Source: Escherichia coli
GTDB lineage: Bacteria; Pseudomonadota; Gammaproteobacteria; Enterobacterales; Enterobacteriaceae
Direction: 5' to 3' (one strand)
DNA: 3,673 bases
Assembly (NCBI RefSeq): GCF_003334765.1
Contig: NZ_QOWT01000069.1
Below the pieces are notes generated by a model. The model worked only from the letters and a program-made list of their open reading frames with translations, ran no database searches and was not told the origin of the DNA. Positions within the stretch are counted from its first letter, which is position 1. The number at the start of each line of letters is the position of its first letter. The position numbers and the translations under genes were made by a program. Of the stretch, positions 1,409 through 1,570 are shown one piece after another.

Positions 1409-1570
1409 TATGAGGAAGGTTGTTATCCCTTTTCTGGCGTATTCGTCATTCCATTCGTATCCCCGGTACCGGATGTTTATATCGTACAGTGCCGGTGCTG
1501 GCGTGCTTTCCTGCAGGTCTGCACCGGTTTAACAAACAAAACTTAACAGAGTCTGAAGGAGTAGTATTCC

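Follow-up and report, generated by a model that had tools for sequence, protein, structure and literature searches.

In Escherichia coli K-12, galactarate dehydratase (family TIGR03248) is encoded by garD (b3128), a gene preceded by garPLRK and followed by prlF-yhaV, agaR and kbaZ. Some dehydratases of the UxaA family are encoded by two separate genes, one for the SAF domain and one for the catalytic domain. A further described system is the module of P4/CP4-like islands in which alpA, an intergenic region and a gene of the UCP030791 family (PF27752) follow one another. The stretch of E. coli DNA analysed here (3,673 bases, hereafter the window) can be compared with all of them, since it joins a garD-derived sequence on the minus strand to a PF27752 gene on the plus strand.

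With respect to K-12 garD, homology covers GarD residues 59-523, that is, the whole of the remaining length, and indicates descent from a garD gene. DNA identity (73-98%) is mosaic, being 73-83% in the 5' two-thirds (garD nt 151-1050) and 92-98% in the 3' third (nt 1051-1572), and in both settings the gene lies beside agaR, itself 97% identical. Unlike the K-12 gene, the island copy has neither residues 1-58 nor the garP/garD promoter, carries a stop at W351, a 73-codon deletion and an 11-bp frameshift, is not separated from agaR by the prlF-yhaV toxin-antitoxin pair, and is a second copy beside the native gene. With respect to the alpA/PF27752 module, window positions 1424-2083 correspond by homology to the gene together with the 3' half of the intergenic region, with inverted repeat, ribosome-binding site and GTG start all conserved, whereas the garD' end has replaced alpA, a short Cys-rich ORF behind it and the initial ~125 bp of intergenic sequence. 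The likeness to split UxaA-family dehydratases is superficial: an ORF begins near the boundary between SAF and catalytic domains, but the window has no SAF partner gene, and the ORF starts outside the ancestral frame and is itself interrupted.

A pseudogene without N-terminus is already known from RefSeq annotation at this place and is unsurprising for a decaying island; the 'UxaA family hydrolase' CNQ56_RS27935 of strain 746 and the 'garD' pseudogene B0908_RS26185 of strain NU14 are the same feature. What the PGAP annotation omits are the joined partner, the individual lesions and the fortuitous nature of the ATG at 1408, and a literature search found no paper describing either the pseudogene or the junction. 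Here, I argue that the junction is very probably the right-hand edge of a decaying cargo block within a genomic island, at which codon 59 of a dead garD copy has been fused to the alpA/PF27752 intergenic region.

Genomic context

The window recurs with 100% identity in the chromosomes of 24 complete E. coli genomes (strain 746, NZ_CP023353, among them) and is part of a mosaic E. coli genomic island of the malX type. Its main features are:

1-191, plus strand: 3' end of agaR, island-borne copy (DeoR-family repressor), after the annotated agaR of strain 746
254-1421, minus strand: garD-derived pseudogene of the UxaA family, PGAP pseudogene CNQ56_RS27935 of strain 746
1571-2083, plus strand: intact PF27752/UCP030791 gene of 170 aa, an ORF annotated as WP_001167450.1
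3335-3673, minus strand: 3' end of acnB, after the annotation of strain 746

The agaR copy shares 97% of its nucleotides with K-12 agaR over window 1-173 and is convergent with the dehydratase pseudogene. Only 62 bp (window 192-253) separate the two stop codons, and this interval holds a perfect palindrome with a 12-bp stem, tatgcccgataa-caagcg-ttatcgggcata, at about 197-226. To the left of the window, strain 746 carries kbaZ/kbaY remnants, then malX, a malY-like gene and IS66/IS100 debris, so ordered that the garD'-agaR'-kba' remnants keep the relative order of their K-12 counterparts; in NU14 and similar strains the block adjoins the sfa fimbrial operon.

To the right of the PF27752 gene lie two more pseudogenes on the plus strand (window 2172-2492 and 2511-3097), namely an ECs1377-family or 'DNA-binding protein' pseudogene, with an internal stop and no C-terminus, and an IS66 tnpC pseudogene, consisting of the C-terminal part only and frameshifted. 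The acnB sequence of the window is likewise a second, island-borne copy, ~95% identical to native acnB; acnB is found at 2 places in the strain 746 record, and the island acnB is matched at 99% identity or more in only 26 records. Immediately upstream of this copy are a second citCDEFXG citrate-lyase cluster and an MFS transporter gene (L001 11335-19189).

The junction between garD and the island backbone

The first-pass annotation had placed at 1408/1409 a rearrangement or deletion junction that removed the promoter and 5' end of the dehydratase gene. That such a junction exists is well supported, both because garD homology ends at 1420/1421 and is followed by unrelated backbone from 1424 and because the PGAP annotation of window 254-1421, made independently, reads 'frameshifted; internal stop; incomplete; missing N-terminus'; its position has to be moved by some bases. 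A nucleotide search across related genomes (query 1250-1650), together with the alignments, placed the breakpoint at 1421-1423. The bases around it are:

1409-1420, minus strand: end of the garD-derived sequence, encoding GarD residues 59-63 at the tail of the SAF domain (DNA alignment from garD nt 176; tblastn)
1421-1423, no strand: breakpoint, three bases (tgt) assignable to neither side, garD homology ending at 1420/1421 and backbone beginning at 1424
1424-1570, plus strand: 3' half of the alpA-to-UCP030791 intergenic region of P4/CP4-like backbones (alignments to other islands; synteny)

On the garD side, local DNA alignment to K-12 garD and tblastn agree that homology stops at garD nt 176 (codon 59), equivalent to window 1420/1421, and a second reference, the GarD-encoding contig L019, puts the end at the same point within a few bases. 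In tblastn, GarD residues 59-69 (DIPANGEIIRY) match an 11-residue stretch at window 1421..1389 (E = 2e-4). Window 1409-1421 encodes NLPHN, as compared with DIPAN in K-12 (residues 59-63), in a frame other than that of ATG 1408. On the opposite side, multiple alignments show backbone homology starting at 1424, at TATCCCTTT, and running through the GTG start at 1571. With garD homology reaching 1420/1421 and backbone homology beginning at 1424, the breakpoint falls at 1421-1423.

It follows from the same alignments that the statement that no SAF coding sequence is present in any frame of 1409..1570 holds for 1424..1570, where the best tblastn matches have E values of 0.3 or worse, and fails for 1409-1421, which encodes GarD 59-63. 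The GarD N-terminus is indeed missing, the K-12 protein aligning only from residue 59, and so is the divergent garP/garD promoter region of K-12, since nothing in the window matches the garP-garD intergenic region. What was lost at the junction thus comprises codons 1-58 (most of the SAF domain) and the promoter of garD and, from the backbone, alpA together with some 125 bp at the start of the intergenic region.

A different origin would be the insertion of a mobile segment carrying PF27752 into an intact island garD, whose 5' end would then survive beyond the insert. Mobile-element debris is abundant, with IS66 and IS100 remnants flanking the block, and a megablast search for the garD 5' region would miss a 5' fragment only ~78% identical to K-12. 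The backbone segment, however, is itself cut at the junction, where alpA and the initial ~125 bp of intergenic sequence are gone, and so does not look like a clean insertion with element ends; moreover, no transposon terminal repeat, IS end or target duplication is visible at 1415-1430. Beyond the PF27752 module, only the ECs1377-family pseudogene, the IS66 remnant and acnB (sfa genes in NU14) are annotated, and no 5' piece of garD. An insertion of this kind is accordingly improbable, and the junction is better read as the fusion of two truncated sequences at the edge of the cargo block.

Lesions of the garD copy

The lesions were compared by aligning four island copies (window, OHT76-1, NU14 and CUVET21-PYO5) to K-12 garD. 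Those of the window, together with the start codon of the ORF 773..1408, are:

773-775, minus strand: in-frame TGA replacing GarD W351 (translation EEMA*YDNY)
968-981, minus strand: junction of a 219-bp in-frame deletion (K-12 garD nt 626-845, 73 codons), from blastn overlap, BLASTP gap and the MAFFT indel list
1388-1389, minus strand: site of a frameshifting 11-bp deletion (ATAACTTCGCC in NU14), from the alignment of window and NU14 and the indel list
1406-1408, minus strand: fortuitous ATG spanning ancestral codons N63/G64, from the K-12 alignment and the tblastn frame difference

All four copies lack garD nt 1-175 and carry the TGA at W351, which, being common to them all, is an old lesion. 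The lineage of the window (window and OHT76-1) adds the 11-bp deletion, flanked by ATA microhomology, and the 219-bp deletion, whose junction shows ~14 nt of imperfect microhomology and whose lost segment is retained in the NU14-type copy; the NU14 lineage (NU14 and CUVET21-PYO5) has instead a TAG at E221 and a 1-bp deletion at nt 814. An extra TAA at K372 is found in OHT76-1. The 5' truncation is thus one of at least four inactivating lesions, and, judging from them, the dehydratase copy would be dead and silent. The mosaic identity to K-12 suggests a diverged donor and subsequent partial conversion by the native locus, as far as sequence comparison can tell; the switch in identity, at about garD nt 1050, lies right beside the W351 TGA.

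The remnant fails every test of a functional GarD, be it the SAF domain, the curated score, the open frame or the gar context. Of the SAF domain (PF08666; GarD ~1-75) only residues 59-69 survive, in a shifted frame, and no match is found upstream of window 1421. Against TIGR03248, the two ORF pieces reach 337.5 and 307.5 bits, at model positions 59-200 and 343-506 of 507, respectively, and neither gives a full-length match above the curated NCBIfam cutoff of 730.85 bits. The frame through the catalytic domain is interrupted by the W351 TGA, the 219-bp deletion and the 11-bp frameshift. Lastly, a blastn comparison of the window with K-12 L003 1-3528 (garR, garL, garP and intergenic sequence) gave no match to garPLR or the shared promoter region.

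The minus-strand ORF 773..1408, of 211 codons, does start at the ATG at 1408-1406, as first annotated; that ATG follows a pyrimidine-rich stretch (5'-AACAACCTTCCTCATA-ATG), and no Shine-Dalgarno is found 5-12 nt in front of it. The in-frame stop described five codons upstream is absent: the frame stays open for 40 codons, up to a TAA at 1531-1529. In BLASTP, the match of K-12 GarD with the translated ORF begins no earlier than residue 73 and, in tblastn of the window, residues 73-522 fall in one frame and 59-69 in another. At the codon level, K-12 reads AAT GGT GAA ATT ATT CGT TAT as against AAT GGT GAA ATC ATT CGC T in the window, where the 11-bp deletion then intervenes; the NU14-type copy, free of that deletion, reads CAG AAT GGT GAA ATC ATT CGC TAT GGC GAA GTT ATC GGT TAC. 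ATG 1408 therefore combines two bases from the end of the N63 codon with the initial base of the G64 codon, and without the 11-bp deletion at 1388/1389 it would not share the frame of the downstream gene. Translation from it yields six residues (MVKSFA) of out-of-frame read-through before true GarD sequence is regained at I73. It is a chance ATG and no ancestral start codon, and neither it nor the pseudogene is likely to give any protein.

One might still regard the gene as a functional UxaA-family hydrolase of the 'large subunit' type, naturally devoid of a SAF domain and truly starting at ATG 1408, for the ATG does fall at about the boundary between SAF and catalytic domains and opens an ORF of 211 codons. 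Against this stand the six codons out of ancestral frame, and an ATG brought into frame solely by a deletion that NU14-type copies do not have; the missing Shine-Dalgarno; the TGA at W351 and the loss of 73 codons of the catalytic domain; scores under the TIGR03248 cutoff; no SAF-only gene nearby; and the classification as a pseudogene by PGAP in every genome inspected. A functional subunit is thus all but excluded. Nor has a related genome turned up in which an intact dehydratase begins at this same ATG, the finding that the first-pass annotation had named as decisive against its reading: no intact version occurs in the 504 complete genomes that have the copy, and copies without the 11-bp deletion have no in-frame ATG at this spot. 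The garD copy is accordingly treated below as a dead remnant.

Distribution and history

The 5' segment of the island-type garD' (window 1160-1423) was found in 504 of the 5,426 complete E. coli genomes, in 499 of them at a coverage of 80% or more. The query spanning the junction (1250-1650) was covered to at least 80% in 497 of the same 5,426 genomes (~9%). Of the 504 genomes with a copy, 497-499 end at the same junction; the copies of the remainder are shorter, one being cut, for instance, by IS66. No complete genome among the 504 has an intact version of the island copy, and all 5 copies inspected are PGAP pseudogenes with the same 5' end. That the junction arose through misassembly or as a chimera in the source record has a practically negligible probability, for it recurs in 497 independent complete genomes at 90-100% identity, NU14 and Nissle 1917 included. 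The junction is old and predates the split between window-type and NU14-type copies. By megablast, 5,410 of the 5,426 genomes have the native garD 5' region, and hence the island copy is redundant.

The history that may be proposed draws, for its observed part, on the homology boundaries, the lesions, the distribution across genomes and synteny; the order of events and the type of recombination are conjectural. A block of chromosomal type, garD-agaR-aga/kba, with malX and malY alongside, would have become cargo of a P4/CP4-like island. An illegitimate recombination or a deletion would then have joined codon 59 of garD to a point midway in the alpA/PF27752 intergenic region, taking away codons 1-58 and the promoter of garD on one side, and alpA with ~125 bp of intergenic sequence on the other. 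Deprived of promoter, start codon and SAF domain, the gene would have decayed further: the W351 TGA may have been gained after or around the truncation, and the lineage of the window would also have gained the 219-bp internal deletion and the 11-bp frameshifting deletion, the latter putting the chance ATG 1408 in frame with the sequence downstream.

A donor genome with an intact, nearly identical garD copy was not found. The closest intact GarD encountered, P0001 on L019 (a 2.3-kb Logan contig), has 87% protein and 81% DNA identity, values too low for it to be accepted as the donor. Since no donor sequence was found, the junction may have arisen by an insertion followed by a deletion as well as by a single deletion.

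In terms of significance, a dead, redundant garD copy that borders a cargo block of a common ExPEC-type island is of little weight. The gains are corrective, in that the breakpoint is fixed to 3 bp, the start codon is recognised as an accident of the 11-bp deletion, and the spacer is given to its plus-strand neighbour. As a minor use, lesions that are shared (truncation, W351 stop), as opposed to lineage-specific ones, could serve as markers of island diversification.

The leader of the PF27752 gene

The spacer 1424-1570, formerly considered unassigned, is homologous to the intergenic leader found upstream of PF27752/UCP030791 genes in other islands. The query 1250-1650 matched ~1,700 genomes, in many of which the match is confined to 1417-1650; this part matches other E. 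coli islands at ~80% identity, and such matches lie upstream of genes annotated as 'hypothetical' or as UCP030791-family, with no dehydratase nearby. Nine loci were inspected and their leaders aligned with that of the window, eight from Escherichia and Salmonella islands (L004, L006, L010-L013, L015 and L017) and L005, whose left flank differs from the others. The usual order is YfjI/YagK-YfjJ (inovirus Gp2-like), a hypothetical gene, an alpA-like HTH gene (PF05930), ~270 bp and the PF27752 gene, the alpA-like gene being found ~270 bp upstream on the same strand in L004, L006, L010-L013, L015 and L017. Upstream of the PF27752 gene of the window the alpA-like gene is absent, and the garD' remnant is in its place. 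With a PF27752 gene (~166-182 aa in this group) and the conserved leader, aligned from 1424, the window belongs with these loci.

Two elements of the leader are:

1491-1528, plus strand: conserved imperfect inverted repeat, a potential hairpin (repeat search; part of the MFE fold)
1556-1561, plus strand: Shine-Dalgarno AAGGAG, 9 nt upstream of GTG 1571 (read from the sequence)

The Shine-Dalgarno aligns with AAGGAG/AAAAGG in family members, and the leader holds several nearly invariant blocks, among them ATTCGTCATTCC and GTCTGCACCGG, the latter being the 3' arm of the inverted repeat, nearly invariant across Escherichia and Salmonella islands. The repeat, ~45 nt upstream of the start codon, is conserved in sequence. 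The plus-strand RNA 1424-1580 folds somewhat better than its shuffles (z = -2.46), the hairpin 1491-1528 being the main feature of the fold; over 10 family members, pairing in this hairpin holds in 97.8% of cells. Covariation in the hairpin is not above that of shuffles (124 of 500 reach the same level), nearly all changes being one-sided transitions. It is conceivable, if rather doubtful, that the repeat is a cis-regulatory element of PF27752 genes, acting as an RNA hairpin or as an operator for an island regulator such as AlpA; were this so, the copy of the window would be a natural case of an element severed from its upstream regulator gene.

A scan of 1200-1800 on both strands for promoter-like sites, limited to the sigma-70 consensus, found none, and a terminator scan of the same interval gave a single terminator-like site, inside the PF27752 CDS and at chance level. 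The Rfam scan of the whole window (E <=1) gave no match in 1409-1570, the only hit being a chance match to a miRNA model at 2670-2732.

The PF27752/UCP030791 name of the 170-aa protein comes from precomputed annotations only: all 329 of its 329 homologues carry PF27752, and the protein had no match in a local Pfam-A copy, NCBIfam or PHROGs. Escherichia and Salmonella islands hold hundreds of homologues 72-95% identical to it, which in a few sources go by the name 'inovirus Gp2 family protein'; the record of strain 746 lists the protein of the window as hypothetical, and newer annotations read 'UCP030791 family putative phage-derived protein'. Decay is ongoing on both sides of the junction, for in OHT76-1 and 3502 the PF27752 gene at the same junction is cut to a 138-nt ORF (L007 6322-6459; L008 6322-6459). 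In OHT76-1, an IS3-family element lies just downstream of the shortened gene.

A last observation concerns the short ORF with a conserved Cys-rich start that, unannotated, overlaps the alpA stop (ATGA) in the backbones (L004 4868-5017; L010 2841-2930; L011 2806-2958; L012 2778-2888). It begins with MKRVVMPVRWQCAKCRRWYCGNQPCPWCWR, continues into a variable tail and totals 30-51 aa; the ORF of L004 ends at the position aligned with the junction of the window.
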